Part shown: piece after piece, positions 9,529-63,937 of the stretch
Position numbering within the stretch: the stretch's first letter is position 1
Layout of the letters: each line of letters starts with the position of its first letter
Notes under the pieces: generated by a model
Seen by the model: the letters and a program-made list of their open reading frames with translations, nothing else
What the model was told of the DNA's origin: nothing
Database searches by the model: none
Position numbers and translations under genes: made by a program
Assembly (NCBI GenBank): GCA_963713865.1
Contig: OY970208.1
Span: 2,464,001 to 2,528,000 of the forward strand
Origin: an uncultured candidate division Zixibacteria bacterium
GTDB lineage: Bacteria > Zixibacteria > MSB-5A5 > RBG-16-43-9
Direction: 5' to 3'
DNA: 64,000 nucleotides

Positions 9529-10866
9529 ATGAGTCAATATTCCTGTGAGAAAAATGGGGACCCGGTAGAGCTCCTTAAAGATACGATTGAGACTAAAATG
9601 GATAAACTTGCCGGGATCAACCAGATTCTGAAGAAAAAGCTCTTCGATCTGCAGGCTATTTTAGAGCTCAGCCGGCAATTCAACTCAAATCCGGACCTGA
9701 ATTCTCTTCTGGAAAACACTCTTCTGACCGTTGCGAGATGTTTAGAGGTCAAGGGTGGATTTATCGCAGTTCAAAAGACTCCTGATGACAGATCGTTTTC
9801 TCTTACCAGGTCTTGCGGGATCGAGATAAAAAAAGGGTTGGAGTTTTCACCTGATTCCTCCCTGTCTGCATATCTTATAGAAAAGAACAAACCTCTATTC
9901 GTAAAAAATGTAATTAAGGAATTTAAGTCTGGGCTGAAAGAATTTCAAGCTAACGAATTTGAGATTATAATCCCTCTTTTGATAAGAGATAAGGTAAGGG
10001 GTATTCTTTTACTCTCCGGCAAGATTTCCGGTCAGTCCTATTCGGAAAACGATCTGGAATTCCTTTCCCTGCTGACTAATCAGGTAACCATCATAATGGA
10101 AAATTTGCTTTACTCTCGGAACGGGAAAGATGCAGATTCAAAACCTGAGAAAACTCGACCGCACTTTATGCAGACCGAAAGATTGGTACTCTTAGGCCAG
10201 CTTTCCATAGCAATTGCCCAGAAGATAACTGACCCTCTGGGGATAATCAAAAATTATCTGGCTATACTTTCACAATCTTTTAAAAAACCCGATAAATCCC
10301 TGGCTCATCTGAGGGTCATAAAAGAAGAGGTGGATCGGATAGCCCATATCGTAAAACAGCTTACCTATTTCTATCGTCCCAAATCCGAGGTTAAAACCCT
10401 GATAGACATTGGCTCTCTTTTAGAAGACACCCTGTCTTTCGTAGAAAAACAATTTTCCAAAGATAAAATCTTTATAAAGAAGGAATTCCAGTCAGACCTG
10501 CCCAGAATTAAAGTTTATCCGGATGAATTACAACAGGTATTTTTAAACCTTCTGATGAATTCCAGGGATTCTTTGCCTCAGGGAGGGGAGATAGAAGTTT
10601 CTGTGAGCGCTCAAAAGGAGAAGCTGGAAATAGAGTTTAAAGATACTGGCAGATGGATTGAAGAAAATGATATCGCTTTAAACTTCGAGCTTTTTGATCT
10701 CCCGGATGCGGGATCGCAGAGACTGGGATTCTGGGTTTCCTCCGAGATATTAAAAAGACATAATGGTGAGCTAAAGGTAAAAAATAGAGAGGATAGAAAA
10801 GGAAGCTGTTTTAACCTCAGCCTGCCTTTCCGGGAAACGGATCTACAGGACGGTAAATTAGGATGA
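9529..10866 (+). CDS. GAF plus histidine-kinase-like protein with degenerate catalytic motifs (probable pseudokinase)
   Basis: GAF motif; H-box reads IAQKITDPLG (no His); N-box LQQVFLNLLMNS intact; G1 DTGRWI and G2 SQRLGFWVS degenerate. Confidence 0.75.
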   Translation: MSQYSCEKNGDPVELLKDTIETKMDKLAGINQILKKKLFDLQAILELSRQFNSNPDLNSLLENTLLTVARCLEVKGGFIAVQKTPDDRSFSLTRSCGIEIKKGLEFSPDSSLSAYLIEKNKPLFVKNVIKEFKSGLKEFQANEFEIIIPLLIRDKVRGILLLSGKISGQSYSENDLEFLSLLTNQVTIIMENLLYSRNGKDADSKPEKTRPHFMQTERLVLLGQLSIAIAQKITDPLGIIKNYLAILSQSFKKPDKSLAHLRVIKEEVDRIAHIVKQLTYFYRPKSEVKTLIDIGSLLEDTLSFVEKQFSKDKIFIKKEFQSDLPRIKVYPDELQQVFLNLLMNSRDSLPQGGEIEVSVSAQKEKLEIEFKDTGRWIEENDIALNFELFDLPDAGSQRLGFWVSSEILKRHNGELKVKNREDRKGSCFNLSLPFRETDLQDGKLG

Positions 10867-17586: not shown

Positions 17587-18627
17587 TTATAATAGAAAAA
17601 TATTATTTTCATGACATTTACTAATCATGTCATCAGGCCAAATACTGCTTTGGACTTCACCTATATGAGCCTTTCGAAGGTAAAACATGCAAAGCCGCGA
17701 TTGGCCGATACCACCTCCAATAGAAAGTGGCAATTCGTCATTGAGCAGACGCCTGTGGAAGTATAAATCTTTTCTTTTCATTTCACCCTTAATCTTCAGT
17801 TGTCGCAACAGCGTTTCAGCATTTACTCGTATTCCCATTGAAGAAAGCTCATAGGCACAGTTTAAAATCGGGTAGTAAATCAATATGTCTCCATTCAATC
17901 CCTTGTATTTACTACCAATGGGTGTGGACCAATCATCATAATCTGGGGCTCGACCATCATGCGGTTTGCCGTTTTTCAGGCTGCCGCCAATCCCGATGAT
18001 AAAAACAGCACCGTACTCGTTGCACACAGCTTTTTCCCTTTCATCGGGCGTCAGTTCTGGATATCTTTCCTCTAGTTCTTCACTATGTACAAAAGTAATG
18101 TCTTCCGGAAGGATGGGCTCGATGACGCTGTATTGATGGCAAATATATTTTTCTGTTCTTTTTATGACATCATATATTTTTCGGACAACACCTTGGAGAT
18201 AATTTAGGTTTCTTTCGTTTGGTGATATCACCTTTTCCCAATCCCACTGATCCACATATAGCGAATGCAGGTTGTCCAGACATTCATCTGATCGAATGGC
18301 ATTCATATCGGTGTACAGGCCTTCACCATGCTGAAAATTATAATCGGCCAGCATCATACGCTTCCATTTAGCTAAGGATTGCACGATCTCTGCATTAATA
18401 TCATCCAAAGCCTTTATCTTAAAAGAAACGGGTCTCTCTACACCGTTTAGGTCGTCATTGATACCTGTACCTGCTTTGACAAACAGAGGTGCCGTAACCC
18501 GTTGAAGGTTCAACTCAAATGATAAATTGATCTGGAAAAATTCTTTTATTAGCCGGACTGCTTTTTCCGTTTCTTTCAGATCCAACAATGGTTCATACTG
18601 TTCCGGGATAAATAAACTTGTTCTCAT
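17587..18627 (-). CDS. asnA: Aspartate--ammonia ligase
   Basis: GINDDLNGVE, SLAKWKR, YVDQWDWE, HDGRAPDYDDW, ELSSMGIRV, GGGIGQSR. Confidence 0.95.
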   Translation of the reverse strand: MRTSLFIPEQYEPLLDLKETEKAVRLIKEFFQINLSFELNLQRVTAPLFVKAGTGINDDLNGVERPVSFKIKALDDINAEIVQSLAKWKRMMLADYNFQHGEGLYTDMNAIRSDECLDNLHSLYVDQWDWEKVISPNERNLNYLQGVVRKIYDVIKRTEKYICHQYSVIEPILPEDITFVHSEELEERYPELTPDEREKAVCNEYGAVFIIGIGGSLKNGKPHDGRAPDYDDWSTPIGSKYKGLNGDILIYYPILNCAYELSSMGIRVNAETLLRQLKIKGEMKRKDLYFHRRLLNDELPLSIGGGIGQSRLCMFYLRKAHIGEVQSSIWPDDMISKCHENNIFLL

Positions 18628-18696
18628 AAAATACCTCCTTTCATATCGCTGTTAGCAAATTCAAATCTCTCGCTTATTAGATATAATCATCTGAAG

Positions 18697-19015
18697 GCCT
18701 AACATAGGTTTATCTGTACTAATAAAATTACAATTACGGCTATTTCTAACCATAAAAACCTCCTTACTAACTTGTAATTTTATTTAATCATTTACTTTAA
18801 TCGCAAGCAGTTAGATAATAAATATCTTATAAACTTACAATCTTTTATACAGCTAAAAGAAGTCGCATAAAATGAAAATTAAAATATATCTGTAAACAAG
18901 ATAAATTGCCTTGTTTAGATATGCAAGTAAAATTCTTCCGTCAGGTCAGGGGACCTGACGGTCACGTGAAAGAGATTTAGTCGGGCAGTTTTCCACAGCC
19001 CGACCTACTGCTACT
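18697..19015 (-). repeat. Array spacer copy 1: AT-rich attI-like platform plus two REPs
   Basis: Near-identical to 20193-20510 and 22365-22607; minus strand ends AGATAAA-CCTAT-GTTAGGC. Confidence 0.85.
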
Positions 19016-19027
19016 GACTGGAAGTAC

Positions 19028-19083
19028 CCGAACCTTCGCTGGGGCGCGGTGGTAGCAACGTCGGCTGCACGCGCTTGTTAGCT
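19028..19083 (-). other. Partial integron attC site (R''/L'' half) downstream of the GT14 gene
   Basis: Minus strand AGCTAAC-AAGCG-CGTGCAGCCGACG, 25 nt after the stop codon; the matching second arm is absent. Confidence 0.6.
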
Positions 19084-19108
19084 CGCTCTCCGTGATAAGT
19101 CAAAATGG

Positions 19109-19936
19109 CTACGATAGATTTGACTCCAAGATACTCAAGATGCCTCCATCAACGGTTTCGTCGAATTTGCGGGCAAACAAGTCTTGACTTGCCATCAAGA
19201 AATCAGCGTCTTTGGACGTGAAGTCTCTTGGACGTAACTTTATTGTTCCTAGCGGCACCCAGTCAATGGTCCTTTTATCGTCGTTCACAATAGTTGCCTT
19301 GTAGTTAGTATTCATTATTACCGTCTGAAAGAATCCTTCATCAGATATAAAGGTGTGCCGATAGAATCTCTTGAACCTTTTGACCTCAAAGCTGTAGCAC
19401 ATATATTCACAGAACTTCCTGCTCAAGATCATCCACTGATTTCCGATATAAGGAGTCACGCCTCGAAGATACGGTCGCTTGATAGGAGTGCGTAGTATCC
19501 TCTTGCTAAACTCGATACAGTAGTTCTCGATTCGAGATAGTGTATCAGGGCGTATCTCTCTCTGGTTAGCCACCTTGATGAAATCCCTTCCTATATTGAG
19601 GCTAAGAAAATCCTGGATGTGCGTCTGCGACTTTAGGGGGAAATCCTGTGCGCTAAGGTTTATGAAAAATTCCCATTCCGAGCTGATCTTCAATAACTCC
19701 TTGATGCCTCGCAATTCAGCATCTACCATGCTGTATCCCCCCCAAAGAATGCTTTGGCTTTTCAGCAAGGATGCGTTGGCAAAGCTTGACAAGAAATCTT
19801 GTATCTCCGTCTGTAATCCAACGCCTGATCTCTTATCCACATGAACCAGGTAATAGTTGGCGGGATGGTAAATTGCTCTAAAGAGCCTTTTGAACTGGTT
19901 AGGATACCGATGTACCAAGATGAGGTATGCGATCAT
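19109..19936 (-). CDS. Glycosyltransferase family 14 (Core-2/I-branching beta-1,6-GlcNAc transferase-like)
   Basis: IAYLILVH, YLVHVD, WGGYSMV, FINLSAQDFPL, GNQW, DEGFFQT, FARKFD. Confidence 0.88.
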   Translation of the reverse strand: MIAYLILVHRYPNQFKRLFRAIYHPANYYLVHVDKRSGVGLQTEIQDFLSSFANASLLKSQSILWGGYSMVDAELRGIKELLKISSEWEFFINLSAQDFPLKSQTHIQDFLSLNIGRDFIKVANQREIRPDTLSRIENYCIEFSKRILRTPIKRPYLRGVTPYIGNQWMILSRKFCEYMCYSFEVKRFKRFYRHTFISDEGFFQTVIMNTNYKATIVNDDKRTIDWVPLGTIKLRPRDFTSKDADFLMASQDLFARKFDETVDGGILSILESNLS

Positions 19937-20192
19937 GTCCTTAACGATCTCCTCTAATCTGTATCTTCCTCAATAATTAGCGGGAAACTAACTCTGCACA
20001 GCCTCTTTCACTCGTGAAAACCGAGGCTACGGGCAACTTTCCCACAGTTATTGAGAATATACTATAACTTGTATCTCTCGAATTTCTATCATGGCAAGCC
20101 TTTCATGGTTAGGATATGGCTATGCCAGAATTATATTCCGAATACGACGGCTTGGCCGAAAAAAGGGGCGACACCTTTGCATACAACGAGCG

Positions 20193-20510
20193 GGCTAACA
20201 TAGGTTTATCTGTACTAATAAAACTACAATTACAGATATTTCTAACCCATAGAAACTTCCTTGCTAACTTACAATTTTTTTTAATCATTCCCTTAATTCG
20301 CAACGGAAAGATAATAGATATCTAATAAACTTACCATCTTTTATACAGTTAAAAAAAGCCGCATAAAATGAAAATTAAAATATATCTGCAAGCAAGATAA
20401 CTTGCCTTGTTTAGATATGCAAGTGAAATTTTTCGTCAGGGCAGGGGACCTGACGGGCACGTGAAAGAGATTTAGCCGGGCAGTTTTCCACAGTCCGACC
20501 TACTGCTACT
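20193..20510 (-). repeat. Array spacer copy 2: attI-like platform plus two REPs
   Basis: Aligns with copy 1 over its full length; core GTTAGCC. Confidence 0.85.
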
Positions 20511-20514
20511 TGGC

Positions 20515-20688
20515 TTATGCGCTCCGGTTGGCGAACGATCGACCAGCGTTTACACCGGAACCAAACCCTGTTGCAAAGAAACCGATTTTTGCTGCCAGCG
20601 AGACATCTCTCCAAATCACAATTGAGAAGACAACCGCAAAAACAAAAAACATGATTGATATCCCCATAAGATTTTTGTTTGACCTCAT
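20515..20688 (-). CDS. Small two-helix membrane protein (57 aa, MRSNKNLMGIS...)
   Basis: GAAGGAG ribosome-binding site before the ATG at 20688; two hydrophobic segments; the longer ORF start lies inside a repeat. Confidence 0.6.
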   Translation of the reverse strand: MRSNKNLMGISIMFFVFAVVFSIVIWRDVSLAAKIGFFATGFGSGVNAGRSFANRSA

Positions 20689-20746
20689 CCTAATATCTCC
20701 TTCGTGAATTTTAAAATTACAGCCATATTCACACTCAAACCCGGCT

Positions 20747-20803
20747 ACCCAACACAGGTTAATCTGTACCAATAAAATTACAATTACGGCTATTTCCAAC
20801 CAA
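20747..20803 (-). repeat. Array spacer copy 3, truncated to the ~57 core-proximal bp
   Basis: Matches the other copies up to the AAC/GTT core (GTTGGGT). Confidence 0.8.
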
Positions 20804-20810
20804 ACTATGA

Positions 20811-22328
20811 TTAGCTTTCCTGTTCGGTAGCCTTTGCCCTTTCCTCATAAGACATATCTGCCAGGCGTTTAACTTCGTTCACATCAAGGCCCAATCCTTC
20901 CGCTACGCGACGGCCATAATCCTGGTCCGCTTTATAAAACAAAGCTGTCTGGCGAAATTGAATGCGTTTTTTCGCCTTGCCCAGGTGGTCCACTATGTTG
21001 CCGATCAGGTGATCCCGGTCCTCATCCTGCATAACTTTGCGATAGAGGTTTCCAGGTTGAACAAAGTCATCATTAGGAAAATTAAAGGGGAAACGCCCCG
21101 CCTGGCCTGAAAGTTCAAAAGGAGGTTCGCCTGTTGCGGGATCCGGCCCGGGGCCGTCAAAACTGTTGGGCCAGTAATTGGGTCCACCCCCTCCGTTGGC
21201 GTCAACACGCATGAAACCGTCACGCTGGTAATTGTTTTCCAAAGCGCATTTAGGCGCATTGACTGGAATAAGATGATAATTAGGACCCAGTCTATGAAGG
21301 TGCGTATCATGGTAAGAAAAAACCCTTGCTTGCAGCATCTTATCCGGTGAAACGGCGATTCCCGGGACTACGTTTCCCGGGCAAAAAGCCGCCTGCTCTA
21401 CTTCTGCAAAATAGTTGACGGGGTTACGGTTTAAAACCAGCTTACCAATTTTGACGGGTGGGACTTCTTTATGCGGCCACACTTTAGTGATGTCAAAGAT
21501 ATCCCAGGGGAAATCCTTGGCTTTCTCTGGTGTTAGAATCTGCATCTCCAGCGTCCAGGAAGGATAGTCACCTCGTTCGATAGCATTATACAGATCACGG
21601 GTGGCGTGATCCGGATCTTCCCCGCAGAGCCTCTTCGATTCCTGGCGGGTCAGATTCTTGATACCCTGATCTGTCTTGAAATGGTATTGTACCCAGAAAT
21701 ACTCCCCCTTATCATTGTACCATTTGAAGGTGTGGCTACTATAACCGTTCATATGCCGGTAAGCGGCCGGTGTTCCCCTGTCGGAGAAAAGAATGGTAAC
21801 TTGATGAACGGATTCGGGAGTAAGAGACAGAAAGTCCCAAAACATGTCCGGATCAGGCAGATTGGTTGCGGGGCGCCTTTTCTGGGTGTGGATGAAGTCG
21901 GGGAACTTAAGTGGATCCCGGATAAAAAATACCGGCGTGTTGTTGCCCACGAGGTCATAATTGCCTTCTTCAGTGTAGAATTTCAATGCAAAGCCGCGTG
22001 GGTCCCGTGCAGCATCGGCTGAGCCCCTTTCACCACCAACGGTGGAAAAGCGAGCGAAGACTTCCGTGCGCTTTCCCACTTTTGAAAGAAACTTGGCTTT
22101 GGTGTACCTGGTCACATCGGCAGTAACTTCGAAATAACCAAATGCTCCAGCTCCTTTTGCATGCACGACACGTTCGGGAATTCGCTCACGGTCGAAGTGG
22201 GCTAATTTTTCCAGCAAATGGGCATCCTGCATGAGTACAGGTCCACGTTCACCGGCTGTCATGCTGTTCTGGTCGTCAGCCACAGGGATTCCAAAAGCTG
22301 TGGTTAGTCTTTTTTTCTCTTCTTTCAT
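20811..22328 (-). CDS. katA: Monofunctional heme catalase (small subunit)
   Basis: [47 protein letters not shown]. Confidence 0.95.
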
Positions 22329-22364: not shown

Positions 22365-22607
22365 ATATAACATAGGTTTATCTGTACTAATAAAATTACA
22401 ATTACGGCTATTTCTGACCATAAAAACCTTTTTGCTAACTTATAATTTTATTTAATCATTTACTTTATTTACAAGCAGTAAGATAATAAATTTCTAATAA
22501 ACTTACCCTCTTTTATACGGCTAAAAGAAACCGCATAAAATGAAAATTAAAATAAATCTGAAAAAAAGATAACTTTCCTTTTTCAGGTATGCAAGTAAAA
22601 CTTTTCC
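22365..22607 (-). repeat. Array spacer copy 4: attI-like platform
   Basis: Aligns with copies 1 and 2; core GTTATAT. Confidence 0.85.
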
Positions 22608-22714
22608 CTCCCTAAATTAAGCAGCCACCCTTGATGTGTTGTCAAGTGTCACTACCTGACAGCCATAAGTACTTGACGTCAGGAGGTAACTCCTGACGCC
22701 ACAATTCAACAATA

Positions 22715-29821: not shown

Positions 29822-29833
29822 GTTTCTCTTGTC

Positions 29834-30361
29834 CTATGGATCCGTTTCCCGGATCATCTCTTTTAAGCGTTTTTTACTCTTCAATTTATTCAGATGACAT
29901 AAGGCGATTGCCAGAGCATCGGTAGCGTCTAAAGGTTCAGGTGTTTTTTTCAACTGCAACATATTTTTCACCATATACTGCACCTGCATCTTAGAGGCTC
30001 CTCCAGTTCCAGTGATGGAAGATTTAATCTCCCTGGGCGAATATTCAGCTACCGGTATCTTTGCCTGAGCACCAGCCAGTAATGCCACACCTCTTATCTC
30101 ACCCATAACCAGGGCCGACCTGGCATTCTTGCTGTAAAAAGCTTCCTCTACTGCTAATTCATCCGGTTTTCTTTTATCAATTATCTCTTTAATTCCCGAA
30201 TAAATCTCTTTCAGTCTCTGGGGTAACTGCTTTTTAGAGGATACTTTAATAGTGCCATAATCAACCAGCACTGCTCTGTTATGATTATCTTTTATGATCC
30301 CATATCCGGTTACCGTGCTTCCCGGATCTATCCCCAAGATAATTAAATTATCTTTACCCAA
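29834..30361 (-). CDS. ruvC: Crossover junction endodeoxyribonuclease RuvC
   Basis: ILGIDPG, EYSP, DATDALAIALCH. Confidence 0.95.
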   Translation of the reverse strand: MGKDNLIILGIDPGSTVTGYGIIKDNHNRAVLVDYGTIKVSSKKQLPQRLKEIYSGIKEIIDKRKPDELAVEEAFYSKNARSALVMGEIRGVALLAGAQAKIPVAEYSPREIKSSITGTGGASKMQVQYMVKNMLQLKKTPEPLDATDALAIALCHLNKLKSKKRLKEMIRETDP

Positions 30362-31146: not shown

Positions 31147-31768
31147 ATTTCTAATCCTCCTTTTCTATCCTCTTCAACGGATTCATTTCAAGATAGGTGC
31201 ATTACCGGATCCGCTTCTTGGATTTAAGAAAATCTATTTCTTTTTATAATAAATAGAATCTCTCAAAAAAGGCAATAGAAATTTGAATTGACCCCAAATA
31301 AAAAAATTAGGTCGGGTAGCTCACCTAATGTTTGGAACCCGGCCTACTCCTCTGGTAGGGGCAATTTCCAGATGGATCCAAATGGACATGAATTGTCCCT
31401 ACACTTTTTCTGCTCCGTCAGGAGCTACTCCTGACGTCCGACCTGTGTTATATGAAAAGCTTCTGACACAACGATTGAAAAACTATAGGAGCGTATTGTC
31501 ATACCCTCCACGCATTACACACTTAATCAGTGCCTTTCAAGTCTCCTGACCTGGCAAACCAAAACTCTGTCGTAAGGTCGGGGGACCTGACGGATACAGC
31601 CTCACCTCTGCGACTTCTTCCGTTGCCACAGGAGTGGCAACGCTACCATCTCCTTAAATAAATGTAGCGGAAGGCTTTAACCTTCCATGTTTTCTTTTCA
31701 ACCTTTGAACCTTTAAACATTTGAACTATATTCTTTATGGAGGTCTAAAGACCTCCTCTTCATAAATA

Positions 31769-35227: not shown

Positions 35228-37894
35228 CTACATCTCTTTCAGCAGTTCTTTGATATCATAATCCTGAAAATTCTCTAACGTCTTTTTATTTAAATCGATT
35301 TTATCTTTTTTCAAATTTAATCTGTAAGAACCAACACGATTATTCTCGATCAGTGGTTTTTCTGAATGAGGAAGTTCTCTTTTCAGACGGTAAATGTACT
35401 TCCCTTGGTTATCCCCTTCCTCCAAATCCAGTTTATGAATCCAGCCATCCTCCTTTTTAAAAACTGCCCAGGCTAATTTGAATAAATATCTGAAACTTTT
35501 ATGGCTGAGCAGAAACCTTCTGCCATTTAGAATAATCGTATATTTCCCCTTAACCAAACTTCCATCTAAAATAAGTTTGCTTTTGGTAGAATCTCTTTTC
35601 CAGAAATTGAAGGTAGGGGCGTATTGCCTTACAACCCTACCAATTTTCCCGGACTCTTGAAGCTTTATCTCTTCTTTTAGCTTGATACCCACCTTTTCAG
35701 GAATTATATTTTTCAACTCCTCTAATTTTATTTCCTTAATCTGGTTTTTAGAGGTAATTCCTTTCAGAGATAGTTTCCAGAGAAAATTTCGTCCCAACCC
35801 TGAGACCTTTAATTTTGCTATTTCAATCATATCCTGACCTATCCCAAACTGAACTTGCCATGCTAAATTCTTTAAAATCTTTTCCAATCCCTCCCCGCAA
35901 TTCAAAATCCGGGCAATGGCAGAGGTAGAATCTAAAAGCCAGGCAAGCTCCTGGGCAATCTGGGAGATAAAACCACTTCTCAGACCATATTCATTTTCTA
36001 AATCATATAGAGGAGCAGGAGTTATCCAGTCACAGAAAAACAAAGAAAGTTTAAGCCTGGAAAGCTGCCTGGAGGATAACTGTCCACTTGAGATGGATAA
36101 AAACTCTTTTAACCTTTGCTCTGAGATACTATCCTGAGTAAATCTTCCTTTTAGTTTTTCTTGATAAACCCTGTTCTCTATTTCATGAAAAGTAAGAGGC
36201 GTATAAATCCTTTCACCATCTTTAGTCTTAAGAAGTTCATAAAACCAGCCCAATGGGTCTCCGATTGGATCCATTGTGAACAAATTCGGATTAACCGGTT
36301 CGGATGAGCTTTCTTTTTCCAGTTTTCTCTTGATCGCCAAGCCAGTTTCAATTTTTATCCCCTGGATAGATATGACTTTCCCCAAAGCAGTTACATAAAG
36401 GGCACCTTTTTCATCTGAGGTTAATATATTTTCCTCAATCAATTTTGAAATATTTTCATTTATACCATTTTGATCTCGATTTATAACGTCAGCTGAAAAG
36501 GTGTTGGCTAAATACTTTCTCAACCCTGCAGAATCCTTAGCCAGGCCCGAGGATACCAGGTCGAGGATGACATCCTCTAAATCTATTTTATCCAGAACCG
36601 GAATCAGCTTTTCTTCCTTGCCTTCGACATACTTATCCCAGAGTGAATCGAAATGAAACTGGTTACCTGCTAAAAGAACTGACCTGCCAAACTCTTTTTC
36701 CAGACCGAATCTTCCAGCTCTTCCGGACATATTCTCATATTCATTCCAGGTTAAGGGAACCATAACCCCTTTGTCGGTAAACTCGCCGCTTTCATATTTC
36801 AAGGTTTCTATAAAAACCGTCCTGGCTGGGAGATTTACCCCCATGGCTAAGGTGCTGGTTGCAAATACCAGTTTAATCTCTTTTTCAAGATAGGAATGTT
36901 CGACTAAACCCCTTTCTTCATAGGTTAAATCAGCATTATGGAATGCAATCCCTTTTTGGAGGCAGAATTCTAACTTTTCCTTAAGGCTGGTAACTTCAAG
37001 CTCAGCTAACTTCTCTAACACTTCGGAGGCAGGTTCTCCTTTGAACTCATCTGCAAATAGAATAGCCATCTTGATAGTCTCATTTCTGCTTTTCAGGAAG
37101 ACTAAAACCTGTTCTCCTTTCTCTAAGAGCATCTGGAGATTGGGAAATAGAATTTTTTCTATTTCTTCGCTTTCAACTTCTATGAATTTCTCCTCTCCTT
37201 CTTCCTGAGAGTTATATTCTTTATAAGTAAATATTCCTTTATATAGAATCCCCTGTAAAAGCTCAACCGGTCTCTTTTTCTCTAAAAGGTACTTGCATCC
37301 CAGCCAGGAAGCTAATCTCTCTACCTCCCCCAAGACTGCAGATAAGCCAATAATCTGTGGTTTGTATCCGGAATTCAGAACTTTGAGCAAAGCCAACTCC
37401 AAAACCTGACCCCGTGAGCTGTCTCCGATCATCTGTAACTCATCTATGATCAAAAGGTCTATGTTCCTCAGTAAGTCTAAGTTTTTAAGCAGCAGTTGAT
37501 TGAACTTTTCATATATCATAATACCTAAATCGAAATCACCTTTTTCCAAATCTGAATCAAACTCCCTTCTGTCTTTTGTAGATATAACTATCTTTATCCC
37601 TAAATTTGAATATTTAGTTTGAAAATCTGAAAACTTCTCCTCGGCAATTGCCTTAAGCGGAACCAGATAAACTGTCTTTTTTCGTCTAAAAATAGAACTG
37701 ATAGCCGCCATTTCTCCACAGAATGTCTTTCCGGAAGAAGTAGGGGCTGAGATTATCAGACTCTCCCCATTTAAAAGATTAAAACGCGTAACTGCTGATG
37801 ATTGTAAAGGTAATAACTTTTCCCCCTGACTTTCTTCCCAGGTCTTGATAATACTTTCCGGGATACCATATTTTAATAATTTTTTAACTTCCAT
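35228..37894 (-). CDS. Ski2/Hel308-like SF2 helicase with an extra C-terminal domain
   Basis: APTSSGKT, VPLKAIAEEK, IIDELQ, GLSA, GIAFHNADL, TSTLAMGVNLPA, MSGRAGR, HhH-like VSGLGR. Confidence 0.88.
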   Translation of the reverse strand: MEVKKLLKYGIPESIIKTWEESQGEKLLPLQSSAVTRFNLLNGESLIISAPTSSGKTFCGEMAAISSIFRRKKTVYLVPLKAIAEEKFSDFQTKYSNLGIKIVISTKDRREFDSDLEKGDFDLGIMIYEKFNQLLLKNLDLLRNIDLLIIDELQMIGDSSRGQVLELALLKVLNSGYKPQIIGLSAVLGEVERLASWLGCKYLLEKKRPVELLQGILYKGIFTYKEYNSQEEGEEKFIEVESEEIEKILFPNLQMLLEKGEQVLVFLKSRNETIKMAILFADEFKGEPASEVLEKLAELEVTSLKEKLEFCLQKGIAFHNADLTYEERGLVEHSYLEKEIKLVFATSTLAMGVNLPARTVFIETLKYESGEFTDKGVMVPLTWNEYENMSGRAGRFGLEKEFGRSVLLAGNQFHFDSLWDKYVEGKEEKLIPVLDKIDLEDVILDLVSSGLAKDSAGLRKYLANTFSADVINRDQNGINENISKLIEENILTSDEKGALYVTALGKVISIQGIKIETGLAIKRKLEKESSSEPVNPNLFTMDPIGDPLGWFYELLKTKDGERIYTPLTFHEIENRVYQEKLKGRFTQDSISEQRLKEFLSISSGQLSSRQLSRLKLSLFFCDWITPAPLYDLENEYGLRSGFISQIAQELAWLLDSTSAIARILNCGEGLEKILKNLAWQVQFGIGQDMIEIAKLKVSGLGRNFLWKLSLKGITSKNQIKEIKLEELKNIIPEKVGIKLKEEIKLQESGKIGRVVRQYAPTFNFWKRDSTKSKLILDGSLVKGKYTIILNGRRFLLSHKSFRYLFKLAWAVFKKEDGWIHKLDLEEGDNQGKYIYRLKRELPHSEKPLIENNRVGSYRLNLKKDKIDLNKKTLENFQDYDIKELLKEM

Positions 37895-42525: not shown

Positions 42526-43122
42526 AACTCCTCCTTTCGTGGAATTGAAAAAAGTTAATTGGTTACCCGCGACGAAATGATTCCCATCTGATTTACCAGA
42601 TTATGCTCACACGCACTTTCTGATCAAAAATATAACTCCCCCTAAATCTTGTCAAGAAAAAAATAAAAAACGTGATAAATCTATCATTGCGGGGAATCCC
42701 GCAGTATGCGGGACGACGAAGCAATCCGACTCTGAAAATTTAAAATGTAGCGGAGGTCTTCAGACCTCCATCTCTTGGAAGACTAAAGTCTTCCGCTACC
42801 AAGGGCTCGCAAAGACACTTTCTGTGTAGTAGCTTGAGTTAGCGGTGGGTTAGGCTTCCTACCTCACCATAGGGAACAGGCAGTCCTGGCAACGGATCCT
42901 TAGGAGATGCCTGTTCTACCAACTTTAAAACAAAAAACCCAAGCTAAGAGCAACCTGGGTCTACCAGTTGATTAACTATTTACACTCAAATTTATCTCAC
43001 TCTAATATTAATTTGAATGTGTCCGTCGGGTCCCCCGACCCGACGGAAGAATAGCGATCCTAAAAGTGTCACCCTACAAAAATCTTTACGGTCACGAATC
43101 ACGGACAACAGTCATCCTCTTT

Positions 43123-48142: not shown

Positions 48143-49117
48143 TTAACCCAGCTTCTCCCCAATTTCTATCCTGTATCCTCTCAAAAACTCTTCAGCTTCA
48201 AGTTTTTTCTTACCTTCCAATTGAAGCTCCTTTAATCTTAAAATACCTTTCTGAGTTTGAACTAATAACCCGCTTTTCTGGTCTGCTTTAATTATTTTCC
48301 CAAACTCTGTTGAAGAGTTCTCATCTATCTCTACTTTAGTTTTATAGACCTTCAATAGTTTACCTCTCAAAAAAGTAAATGCTCCCGGTTGAGGAGAAAG
48401 ACCTCTTATCAGGTTATTTATTTCCTGAGCTGATTTCGACCAGTTGATTCTGCACAACTCTTCAGTTATCTTAGGAGCTAAGCTTACTTCTAAATCATTC
48501 TGAGCATAGGTTCTCACTTCTCTTTTTTCGATCAAGTCTATGGTCTCCAATAAAACTTCTGCTCCAATTATGGAAAGTCTTAAAGAAAGCTCTCCAAAAG
48601 TTTCCTCCGGATATATCTCAACCTCTTTTTGCAAGATAATCCCTCCAGTATCCACTTTCTTCTGGATAAAAAATGTTGTCAGACCGGTAATCTTTTCACC
48701 CTTAATGAGTGCCCAGTTTATCGGGGCAGCCCCTCTGTATTTCGGCAGAAGAGAGGCATGCAGATTGATTGTGCCCGAAGGAGGTAAACTGAAGATTCTC
48801 TCCGGAAGAATCCGGAAAGCTACAACCGTAATCAAATCCGGCTTTAATTCATTAAGAGCTCGATAGAATTCCTCAGATTTCAAATCCTCAGGAGTTAAAA
48901 CTTTTCTTGTGGATCTCCCACTGGATCCATTCTGGACAATTTCGGACAGGTTATGCTTCTCTGCAAATTCTTTCACTGGCGAAGGTAAAAGCTTCAAACC
49001 TCTCCCTCTGGGTTTATCCGGCTGAGTTACTATCCCTGCGATCTGATGCTTACTATTCAAAAGCAGTTCCAGACTGGGCAGGGCAAACTCAGGAGTTCCC
49101 ATAAAAACAATCCGCAT
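48143..49117 (-). CDS. fmt: Methionyl-tRNA formyltransferase with a 14-aa in-frame insertion
   Basis: FMGTPEFA, VTQPD, NLHASLLPKYRGAAPI. Confidence 0.96.
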   Translation of the reverse strand: MRIVFMGTPEFALPSLELLLNSKHQIAGIVTQPDKPRGRGLKLLPSPVKEFAEKHNLSEIVQNGSSGRSTRKVLTPEDLKSEEFYRALNELKPDLITVVAFRILPERIFSLPPSGTINLHASLLPKYRGAAPINWALIKGEKITGLTTFFIQKKVDTGGIILQKEVEIYPEETFGELSLRLSIIGAEVLLETIDLIEKREVRTYAQNDLEVSLAPKITEELCRINWSKSAQEINNLIRGLSPQPGAFTFLRGKLLKVYKTKVEIDENSSTEFGKIIKADQKSGLLVQTQKGILRLKELQLEGKKKLEAEEFLRGYRIEIGEKLG

Positions 49118-52275: not shown

Positions 52276-53668
52276 CTACTTGCTACCTGCTACTTGCTTT
52301 TTAAATAGTACTGCTAAAGCCTCTTTAATACTTTTTACCCCTGAAATCTCGATCTTGAATTTACCCTTTAAATTCTTCAAATTACCATCTGGAATCACAC
52401 AGCTTTTGAATCCTAACTTTTCCCCTTCTTTAATTCTTCTCTCGATTTGACTTATGCTTCTCACCTCTCCTCCCAAGCCTACCTCACCCATAATCAAAAA
52501 ATCCTTTCTGACCGGAACATTCTTGAAATTAGAGACCACTGCCGCAACTACCCCTAAATCAATGGCTGGTTCATCAATCCAGACTCCCCCAGCCACATTT
52601 ATGAAGACATCTGTGGAGGATACTCTAAGATTTTCTCTTTTTTCTAAAATAGCCAAAAGCAATGAGAGTCTTTTATAATCTATGCCTGAACAAACTCTTT
52701 GAGGCATTCCATAGACTGTAGGCGAAACCAATGCTTGTAATTCCACTAAAAGAGGTTCTGGTTCCCTCTAAGGAACAAACCACCACCGAGCCGGATATGT
52801 CCTCTTCCATCTCAGATAGAAAAAGCTCTGAGGGATTATCTACTTCCTGAAGCCCTTTTTCTTCCATCTGGAAAACACCGATTTCATTGGAAGAGCCGAA
52901 CCGGTTTTTAGCTGACCTCAAAATCCGAAAAGCGTAATTTTTCTCACCTTCAAAATAAAGCACCGTATCCACCATATGTTCTAAAACCCTGGGACCAGCT
53001 AAGGAACCATCCTTGGTTACATGCCCAACCAAGAAAACAGCAACCCCTTTACCTTTGGCAAAATTTATTAGTTTTGAGGCACATTCCCTTATCTGGGAGA
53101 TAGACCCTGGAGCACTCTCCAGATCTGGAGAATAAGTAGTCTGAATCGAATCGACAACTGCCATAGAAGGAGGATTTTTCTCTAGAGCTTCTATGATCGC
53201 ATCTAAGTTCGTTTCAGTTAATATCTCTATTTTATCCGAATCTATCCCCATCCTTAAAGCCCGTAATTTAACCTGCTTTATAGATTCCTCTCCTGTGATA
53301 TACAGAACTCGACCTAAGTTCTCTGCTACTTTTTGACTGGTCTGGAGCAATAGAGTGGATTTCCCAATCCCCGGATCCCCACCCACCAAGACAACTGAAT
53401 CCTTTACAATCCCTCCACCCAAAACCCTATCTAACTCACCTATCCCAGTTTTCATCCTGTCCTCTTCCCCGAATTTAACCTGGCTTAAAGGAAGTGGAGT
53501 AGTTCTTAATTCATATCTTTCAATTCTTTTTTCTTTTTTCCTGGATACTTTTTCCTCAACCAGACTATTCCAGGAAAGACAATCCGGACATTTCCCCATC
53601 CATTTGGGAAAACTGCTTCCGCAGGATTGACAGATGAAAACCGTTTTTAATTTATCAACACCAGCCAT
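52276..53668 (-). pseudogene. radA: DNA repair protein RadA/Sms split by a +1 frameshift (true lesion or sequence error)
   Basis: C4 zinc finger, GDPGIGKST and KNRFG in the first frame; Lon-like domain in the second; extra base at 52756/52757 breaks EGTRPLLVE. Confidence 0.88.
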
Positions 53669-63190: not shown

Positions 63191-63745
63191 TCAAAAACTT
63201 AATAACTCAGTGTCAACTTTAATTATTGAATGGTCATTCAAAATATAATTTCTGGCACTAGAATATCGATAATCCTCAGGTTTCTCTACTAATCCTTCTT
63301 TGCCCGGATTATTATGGATATAGTCTATTTTAGTTCTTAATATCTTAGGACTATAGACACCTAAATCATCATATCCTAGTTGCCAGATTTGATATTCCCA
63401 ATTCTTTTTCTTGGGTTCTTCTAATCTAAATAATTTCAACCAATTTATTCTCTTGTCTTTCTCCATCTGCTCACGCAATTTCCTAGCTGTAAATATTTTA
63501 AAGTCTTCTATAATTTTAGAAATTTCTTTTACTCTTTCCTGGTCTGGATAAATCAACAAATGAATATGATCTGGCATAACTACGTAGGCAATCAGCTTAA
63601 AAGCATACTTTTCTCTATAAAAGCTAATATTCTCTAAAATTATATCAATATATTTTTTCTCTTTGAAAATCTTGACAAATTTATTAACGCTTGTTGTGAT
63701 AAAATAACTATTACCTTCGAAATATTTCCTGCCTCTTAAAGGCAT
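63191..63745 (-). mobile_element. REP-associated tyrosine transposase (RAYT/TnpA-REP, Y1 HUH family)
   Basis: YFITTSV, YVVMPDHIHLL (HUH), IWQ, YIHNNP, YRYSSA; start set at ATG 63745; REPs on both sides. Confidence 0.88.
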
Positions 63746-63756
63746 ATAATTTCCAC

Positions 63757-63937
63757 CCGTTAGGTCAGGGGACCTAACGGTCACATGTAAAGTGTGCCTT
63801 CTTGTGTCCGCAAGGACCCCTGACCTTGCAGATAAAATTCTTACCGTCGGGTCAGGGGACCCGACGGGCACATTGAAACGGTCATGAAATCATAGTCACA
63901 GTATTACCGTGCCTACCAGATCCCCTAACCTGGCAGG
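63757..63937. repeat. Four alternating REP palindromes upstream of the RAYT gene
   Basis: Copies at about 63757-63784, 63804-63830, 63844-63871 and 63909-63937, consensus GTGN-CCGTCGGGTCCCCTGACCCGACGG. Confidence 0.85.

Follow-up and report, generated by a model that had tools for sequence, protein, structure and literature searches.

Probable stepwise nesting of two 21-nucleotide repeats in protein-coding genes of an uncultured Zixibacteria bacterium

Introduction

How can the same short piece of DNA come to lie in two unrelated genes and be read there in different frames? This question is raised by a window of 64,000 nucleotides (nt) from an uncultured candidate division Zixibacteria bacterium (assembly GCA_963713865.1, contig OY970208.1, positions 2,464,001 to 2,528,000), to whose full length the term window and all coordinates refer. 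In this window, a 42-nt composite of two small repeats, here called A and B, is found in the gene of a Hel308/Ski2-like helicase and, read differently, in the fmt gene. The initial annotation of the DNA took the likeness of the two inserts as a sign of DNA-level mobility and proposed that either the 42-mer moves as a unit or the element targets its own G|GATCC site. The comparison of alleles among related genomes now makes it very probable that A and B are mobile elements and that their nesting is stepwise. The comparison adds series of three allelic states at named genes, the specificity of B for its host, evidence that the composite moves as a unit, and one bond that was probably hit repeatedly.

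The same nested insert in the helicase and fmt genes

The two composites, their parts and their host genes are the following:

35228-37894, minus strand: host gene, Hel308/Ski2-like helicase of 888 amino acids (aa) (domain hits, PDB matches, structure model)
36249-36290, minus strand: 42-nt composite insert, A with B inside, adding helicase residues 536-549
36281-36290, minus strand: outer A, left 10 nt, most of hairpin 1 up to the G|G bond
36260-36280, minus strand: inner 21-nt B, decayed, with 3 mismatches to the commonest B
36249-36259, minus strand: outer A, right 11 nt, in a variant lacking the in-frame TAG expected from the common A at this phase
48143-49117, minus strand: host gene, methionyl-tRNA formyltransferase (fmt)
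48905-48946, minus strand: the other composite, located in fmt and entered at codon phase 0 (SEIVQNGSSGRSTR)
48916-48936, minus strand: inner B of the fmt composite; one low-depth contig of a relative lacks 21 nt over this span

Both elements are 21 nt long and share the design TCC-loop-GGATCC-loop-GGA, i.e. they belong to a TCC-Nx-GGATCC-Ny-GGA family. In the composite, B lies within A at the G|GATCC of the latter and no target sequence is duplicated. The helicase open reading frame (ORF) carries the domains DEAD, Helicase_C and Helicase_dom4_arc, and its top PDB matches are Hjm/Hel308 proteins. Its insert encodes residues 535-549 (NPNLFTMDPIGDPLG). As the initial annotation had claimed, the same nested 42-mer is read in another frame than in fmt: the peptides differ because entry occurred at codon phase 2 in the helicase and at phase 0 in fmt. 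The identity of about 31 of 38 nt was likewise reproduced (31/38 over the first nucleotides, 32/42 overall). When the 2.72-Mb genome of the bacterium was scanned with the helicase 42-mer, the fmt copy differed at 10 positions and the next match at 15, and the reversed genome gave nothing below 17 mismatches. On these grounds, a chance likeness of the two 42-mers was rejected.

A gap of about 14 residues had been predicted for the helicase homologues. Indeed, among 30 helicase loci, the three from the own genus carry 14 additional codons and 25 have the empty length; of the two others, G059 has an unrelated insert of 10 codons and G005 an ambiguous one of seven. The same three own-genus genomes also carry the 14 codons in fmt, where the remaining 27 of 30 loci are empty. 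Moreover, 114 of 121 Fmt proteins are empty, four have 14 additional residues and three have seven. One of these heptapeptides, SEIGSTG, corresponds to A alone, read in frame.

Empty, A-only and nested alleles

The shorter Fmt insert is part of a series that recurs at other orthologous sites. In uvrC, the site is empty in G003, G004, G006 and G007, holds A alone in G000 and G001, and holds A with B in G002. In nnr, it is empty in four genomes, occupied by A alone in G004 and by both elements in G006 and G008. A-only alleles were seen at fmt, uvrC, nnr and a nucleotidyltransferase gene. The occurrence of all three states at the orthologous fmt, uvrC and nnr sites therefore indicates that B enters a resident A, and the mobility and nesting at the DNA level that had been postulated are supported by these alleles. 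Furthermore, parsimony on helicase gene trees favours the prior arrival of A at uvrC and nnr, and locus-private variants of the outer A were retained after B had arrived. We infer that most composites arose stepwise, with B entering after A. Nesting may go further: at the start of murI in G001, 63 additional nucleotides consist of B in a reversed B in A. Besides uvrC, nnr and murI, composites reside in the genes for FolD, a sugar-phosphate nucleotidyltransferase, an MlaE permease and an aminotransferase, and the comparison with empty alleles covers all of these except the last two.

The initial annotation had treated movement as a unit and targeting of a site as exclusive alternatives. This exclusivity did not stand, since both have support. 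Among 36 unique metagenome sites, three (L293/L308, L268/L284 and L290) have a whole 42-mer lodged in the G|GATCC of a further A; in the own genome, the site of L290 holds A alone. Therefore, the 42-mer probably also moves occasionally as one unit, and it likely does so in one piece because the TCC...GGA ends of A are kept. An A inside another A without B was found in none of nine genomes. Furthermore, composites share variants of the B loops (11/18 and 19/36 copies, compared with 3/49 free copies), and a rare left variant of A is combined with a rare B loop in 3/3 versus 2/33 copies (Fisher p=0.0014, the copies not being independent).

History of the helicase site

Of 26 full-length helicase proteins, five carry the composite, one (that of G005) has the additional seven residues and the others are empty, including P0004, the closest non-carrier. 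The seven residues of G005 are ambiguous: they can be read as an A-only helicase allele, but their codons align equally well with the ancestral segment. A tree built without the insert columns (15 of 24 long rows used) rejects a single clade of carriers (AU, approximately unbiased test, p=0.0001). It follows that the same helicase bond was filled twice or that the insert was lost or exchanged; the bond seems to have been filled in two separate lineages. By analogy with fmt, filling of the helicase site in two steps is slightly favoured. In P0005, the helicase gene contains also a second composite and a reversed A.

All carriers known at the DNA level possess an A variant that lacks the frame-stopping TAG, which suggests filtering by selection. 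In a structure model built from the alignment (mean predicted local distance difference test score, pLDDT, 74), the insert falls into a low-confidence loop (531-544) between the helices 515-530 and 548-555. A bias of coding copies to multiples of three had also been suggested, and this was borne out: 29 of 46 copies of the 21-nt A lie inside called ORFs, compared with 2 of 48 copies of a 22-nt form of A, a large contrast even though the ORF caller was crude and some of its calls are wrong. Copies with a length divisible by three survive in surface loops of proteins as probably neutral inserts of 7, 14 or 21 residues.

The helicase family shows other insertions as well. The loop near residue 470 is a second hot spot (L024, L025); in these helicases of genus g3, in-frame inserts of up to 45-47 residues consist of REP-like (repetitive extragenic palindromic) and GC-rich hairpins. 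In another family, the helicase of G026 (L029) carries a 30-nt GC-rich in-frame insert with the same TCC...GGATCC...GGA twin-hairpin design.

Copies and folding of the two elements

Exact-architecture counts in the own genome are concentrated in few combinations of loop lengths. The 21-nt A (x=6, y=3) and the 22-nt A (7,3) occur 24 times each, the 21-nt B (5,4) six times and the 4,4 form three times, and most other combinations about 0-3 times. Profile scans of the same genome yielded 54, 60 and 22 matches in overlapping sets, the reversed-genome control 0-1. A target duplication was not found among the copies, the distribution of duplication lengths being like random.

Each element can form a pair of small hairpins that adjoin directly. 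In 40 of 46 copies of the 21-nt A, positions 4 and 9 can pair (shuffle mean 31.2, p=0.0002), and the second loop is GNA in 63 of 97 A copies, related copies not being independent in these counts. The first loop of B varies between GAA, GTA and GGA. According to published work, d(GNA) loops form very stable DNA hairpins (PMC3201870). A and B often lie inside GTAG REPs, and many copies are located in hairpins. Lone TCC...GGA hairpins, 13-17 nt in length, form further repeats of the own genome.

Target choice of A and B

A prefers targets that resemble N|NAGG. For B, the consensus over 67 sites, which include orthologous repeats, is Y-N-T-G|N-A, and 49 of these sites lack GATCC. At the family level, 18 B sites have a right flank that resembles GATCC; 17 of them lie in A and one in B, and none is a bare GGATCC. 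The metagenome gave the same picture: all 36 composite hosts are 21-nt A copies, with neither a bare GGATCC nor a 22-nt A among them. Eight of 51 own-genome copies of the 22-nt A share the same TG|GA, yet this form is absent from the 36 hosts. GGATCC is not over-represented (394 occurrences, 387 expected) and 247 TGGATCC sites exist. The 21-nt A, which holds a B-type site at G|GATCC, is a strong hot spot for B, and the G|GATCC sequence alone is not sufficient as a target. As no bare GGATCC was used and all hosts are 21-nt A copies, the target is the element itself, recognised via its fold, a bound enzyme or short homology. The earlier proposal that the element targets its own G|GATCC site thus has to be corrected in three respects: the target is mostly the sister element A, the bare site does not suffice and B also uses other Y-N-T-G|N-A sites.

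Two further readings of the target were tested. GGATCC as an HIP-like (highly iterated palindrome) or restriction target was rejected since the sequence is not enriched and bare sites are unused. The idea that tips of hairpins in general are targeted is unsupported, the pairing of the flanks being close to that of shuffled sequences. An insertion at the GGA|TCC joint was not found. Two other observations concern the B position. The paralogous loci G000:C1:767747 and 795292 share A, and one of them has an unrelated 18-nt insert at the G|G position of B. At L132 (G002), B was read by eye in the first loop of a reversed B, at a bond other than G|GATCC.

Distribution

No third composite was found in the own genome, but further 42-mers occur in the family. 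There, the junction pattern identified 20 places in six of nine genomes; in a set of 61 related genomes, the composite occurs at 16 places in six genomes, all of the own family. A metagenome scan revealed 50 composite loci, 36 of which are unique by their flanks. A-type patterns are present in 27 of the 61 genomes, and the copy number ranges from 0 to 97. Among GTDB species genomes, the exact B pattern has 38 loci, 34 of them in four assemblies (three titled Zixibacteria, one Ignavibacteria) and four as single matches elsewhere. The assemblies of these single matches (L213, L218, L224 and L230) bear the titles Anaerolineaceae, Clostridia, Ignavibacteria and, once more, Zixibacteria; for these matches, transfer, misbinning or chance are possible. 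The hosts are apparently known from metagenome assemblies only. In viral contigs, B had no match and the fmt search gave nothing; 21 matches of a 15-base A pattern are taken as chance by estimate. An Rfam scan of the window detected tRNA only.

A possible mechanism and its difficulties

On balance, we favour that B is pasted into A without duplication, in the form of folded single-stranded twin hairpins, by an enzyme acting in trans, most likely of the HUH (Y1) type. A and B are taken as non-coding repeats whose insertion and nesting are precise, recurrent and free of target duplication, and covariation and GNA loops point to folded single-stranded twin hairpins as the probable substrate. A nicking and strand-transfer enzyme encoded elsewhere would move the elements. 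Excision is predicted to yield a closed 21-nt dumbbell whose new joint recreates GGATCC. The assignment of the enzyme class itself is tentative. Y1 HUH enzymes are the best guess because their single-strand chemistry gives no target duplication (PMC8266576), because the own genome has eight Y1 matches and because no reverse transcriptase (RVT_1) was found in this genome, which is 94% complete. A search for tyrosine recombinases gave four matches. One candidate for the enzyme class lies in the window:

63191-63871, minus strand: Y1 (RAYT-like; REP-associated tyrosine transposase) transposase gene, a candidate for the enzyme class only, with no adjoining A or B copy

Several observations weigh against parts of this account. 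With respect to the order of events, the fmt tree leaves the direction between A-only and A+B unfixed (AU p=0.06), and a clear A-only helicase allele was not found in the 30 loci and 26 proteins; reads mapped onto the helicase gene showed no shorter allele either. As to the folded substrate, the folds of single copies do not surpass those of shuffled sequences (z -0.07 to -1.09), the consensus B is slightly better as one long hairpin (-3.7 versus -2.4 kcal/mol), at least four A copies have hairpin 2 inverted, and circular permutation of the elements on the same strand was not found. No linked enzyme is apparent: A or B lies near 2 of the 45 family Y1 loci listed, with one copy each, which is about background. 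Three of these 45 loci gave no Y1 ORF by the motif filter, the one from the own genome having no elements nearby. Likewise, none of the 30 best Y1 loci across the order adjoins A or B. The RAYTs of the family have GTAG REPs of their own on their flanks. Y1 genes are present in 34 of 34 genomes, those free of B among them. Neither linkage nor a shared distribution revealed a cognate RAYT. Characterised RAYTs cleave C|T or C|A (PMC8266576), and only 8 of 70 A target bonds fit these, on either strand. No leading- or lagging-strand bias was detected (60/111 leading, p=0.45), the estimate of the origin being poor. Moreover, an autonomous partner with the same ends was not found in the own genome, where 2 of 2292 called ORFs are flanked by element copies on both sides within 400 nt and, by eye, neither resembles an enzyme of mobile elements.

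In its most far-reaching form, which is unlikely to be right in every part, the proposal would make A and B the smallest transposons moved by an enzyme. They would be nicked 21-nt dumbbells that leave as closed single-stranded minicircles and insert without scar, preferentially into a bound sister element. In this way, they would build mobile composites of 42 and 63 nt, which add one and the same 14-residue peptide to unrelated housekeeping proteins and may strike a single bond of one gene in separate lineages.

Alternative explanations

The helicase copy and many other composites could have arrived as a ready-made 42-nt unit, the A-only alleles elsewhere reflecting a separate history or the precise loss of B. 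We regard this as doubtful. It would account for the empty P0004 gene in the absence of a clear A-only helicase allele, for carriers that are not one clade, and for pairs of empty and full alleles without an intermediate at folD, L096, L271, L282, L288 and L313; whole composites in another A, together with the lack of A in A without B, and the B loop variants shared among composites fit it as well. Resident A copies with private variants, seen alone at fmt, uvrC and nnr, speak against it, as do the parsimony result for the latter two genes and the diversity of the outer halves (11 left variants in 36 sites). The seven residues of G005 could count on the same side if they are aligned as a decayed A-only helicase allele, a different alignment being equally good. 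Alternatively, A alone might transpose, and B might reach it from composites by short-homology gene conversion or single-strand annealing via the 10- and 11-nt halves of A, without special target recognition. Such a route would explain the restriction of B to the 21-nt A, the link of B variants to the composite state and the B of uvrC in G002, which is identical to the unusual fmt B. It is nevertheless improbable, for B has entered A variants that deviate from the consensus near the junction and whose differences were kept (folD, L289, L304), and its insertions into a reversed B and into many sites outside A likewise have precise ends. The homology is also very short; stretches of 10-11 nt are below the usual needs of RecA.

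A dedicated enzyme might be dispensable if replication switched templates at hairpins and copied distant elements, primed by shared TG/NA flanks. Neither the missing linked enzyme nor the many copies in hairpins would then surprise, and the inverted hairpin-2 variants resemble products of such switching. The precise ends at aligned orthologous sites, the reuse of one bond by different inserts and copy numbers ranging from 0 to 97 between related genomes make this explanation distinctly improbable. Movement via RNA and a reverse transcriptase has still less to recommend it and appears highly improbable: G-T pairs are common in hairpin 1 (25/46) and composites in coding regions are mostly sense-oriented (14/18), but RVT_1 was not found in the own genome, intergenic copies show no sense bias and the GNA triloops favour DNA. 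Finally, a BamHI-like nuclease could make the target by cutting G|GATCC, as HIP1 does for SDR5, which inserts precisely within it (PMC4390886). Apart from this precedent and the coincidence of the B bond in A with the G|GATCC position, the evidence is adverse. GGATCC is as frequent as expected, the bare sequence is used at none of the 18 and 36 sites despite 247 TGGATCC sites, a GATC duplication is absent and most B sites lack GATCC. This explanation is largely refuted, with hardly a chance left.

Other features of the window

Four stand-alone copies of the elements were located in the window:

29832-29853, minus strand: 22-nt A that gives the last codons and the stop of ORF 29834-30361, which we take to be ruvC-like
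10829-10850, plus strand: 22-nt A near the 3' end, within the last codons, of ORF 9529-10866
42884-42905, plus strand: 22-nt A within an intergenic REP-like hairpin
31367-31386, no strand assigned: 20-nt B-like variant within a GTAG REP hairpin

A gene, presumably RadA/Sms-like, is apparently split at 52276-53668 (minus strand) into two overlapping ORFs (52673-53668 and 52276-52746). In the intergenic regions of 26476-59160, families of tandem units of 7-8 nt (D2, D5, D6) lie between many genes, beside several REP families. Furthermore, a 243-nt repeat is present in three copies (18700-18942, 20196-20438, 22368-22610) between the genes of 17587-22328, possibly as cassette-like junctions.

Significance

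How repeats of 20-40 nt such as REPs and small dispersed repeats (SDRs) move is a long-open question. With A and B, two 21-mers are at hand as defined substrates, together with an exact target bond that is reused across genomes and with empty, half-filled and full alleles from nature. Therefore, an assay of nicking and joining with oligonucleotides can be designed directly. The elements also reveal how unrelated proteins may acquire an identical loop peptide and how small elements may merge into larger mobile units. Should an enzyme indeed insert 21-42 nt scarlessly, it would deserve attention as a tool.

Comparison with known systems

A description of the A/B family was not found in the literature searched, and passages of a 2026 preprint (10.64898/2026.09.22.753630) do not cover the family either. 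By their features, A and B are not members of the REP/RAYT, MITE (miniature inverted-repeat transposable element) or RPE (Rickettsia palindromic element) groups.

We know of no identified mover of the SDRs of Nostocaceae. These elements (Elhai et al. 2008), especially SDR5, share with B the precise insertion at one bond of a palindrome (PMC4390886, PMC5861425). In contrast to SDR5, the host palindrome is here another mobile element and not a genome-wide HIP, and GGATCC is neither enriched nor hit when bare. By description, the twin hairpins, the mobile composite and the other phylum also appear to set A and B apart from SDRs.

REPs and REPINs with their RAYT (TnpAREP) are likewise short hairpin repeats, and the genome studied here is rich in RAYTs. 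REPs occur within genes too, and REPINs can integrate into, or next to, one another (PMC3733652, PMC3116915). A and B differ in that they begin with TCC and have no 5' GTAG before a single stem, A having GTAG only near its 3' end and B none. Moreover, they lack an adjoining cognate RAYT, their target bonds do not conform to C|T or C|A, and about two thirds of the 21-nt A copies lie in called ORFs. With IS200/IS605 elements and their non-autonomous derivatives, they share the lack of target duplication, hairpin ends and strand-specific folds (PMC8266576). In contrast to these, A and B are only 21 nt long, and the own genome yielded no autonomous partner that shares their ends. IS200/IS605 elements have a fixed 4-5 nt target on one side and a lagging-strand bias; for A and B, the target consensus appears loose and lies mostly 3' of the insertion, and no strand bias was seen with the uncertain origin. 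MITEs have terminal inverted repeats of 15-30 bp and a duplication, whereas A and B have 3-bp TCC/GGA ends and duplication lengths like random.

The small hairpin elements of yeast mitochondria known as GC clusters (GC42 and merged forms) occur both alone and merged at the same homologous site, and the merged clusters vary in copy number (PMC4478555). Unlike the duplication-free A and B, they are GC-rich, organellar and flanked by AG/ACT direct repeats. The RPEs of Rickettsia resemble A and B in that palindromic DNA lies in frame in unrelated, probably functional genes (PMC3733652); here, such genes comprise those of the helicase, fmt, uvrC, nnr, folD, murI and others. With about 105-146 bp (PMC3184786), RPEs are longer than the inserts of A and B, which measure 21-63 nt and nest in each other.

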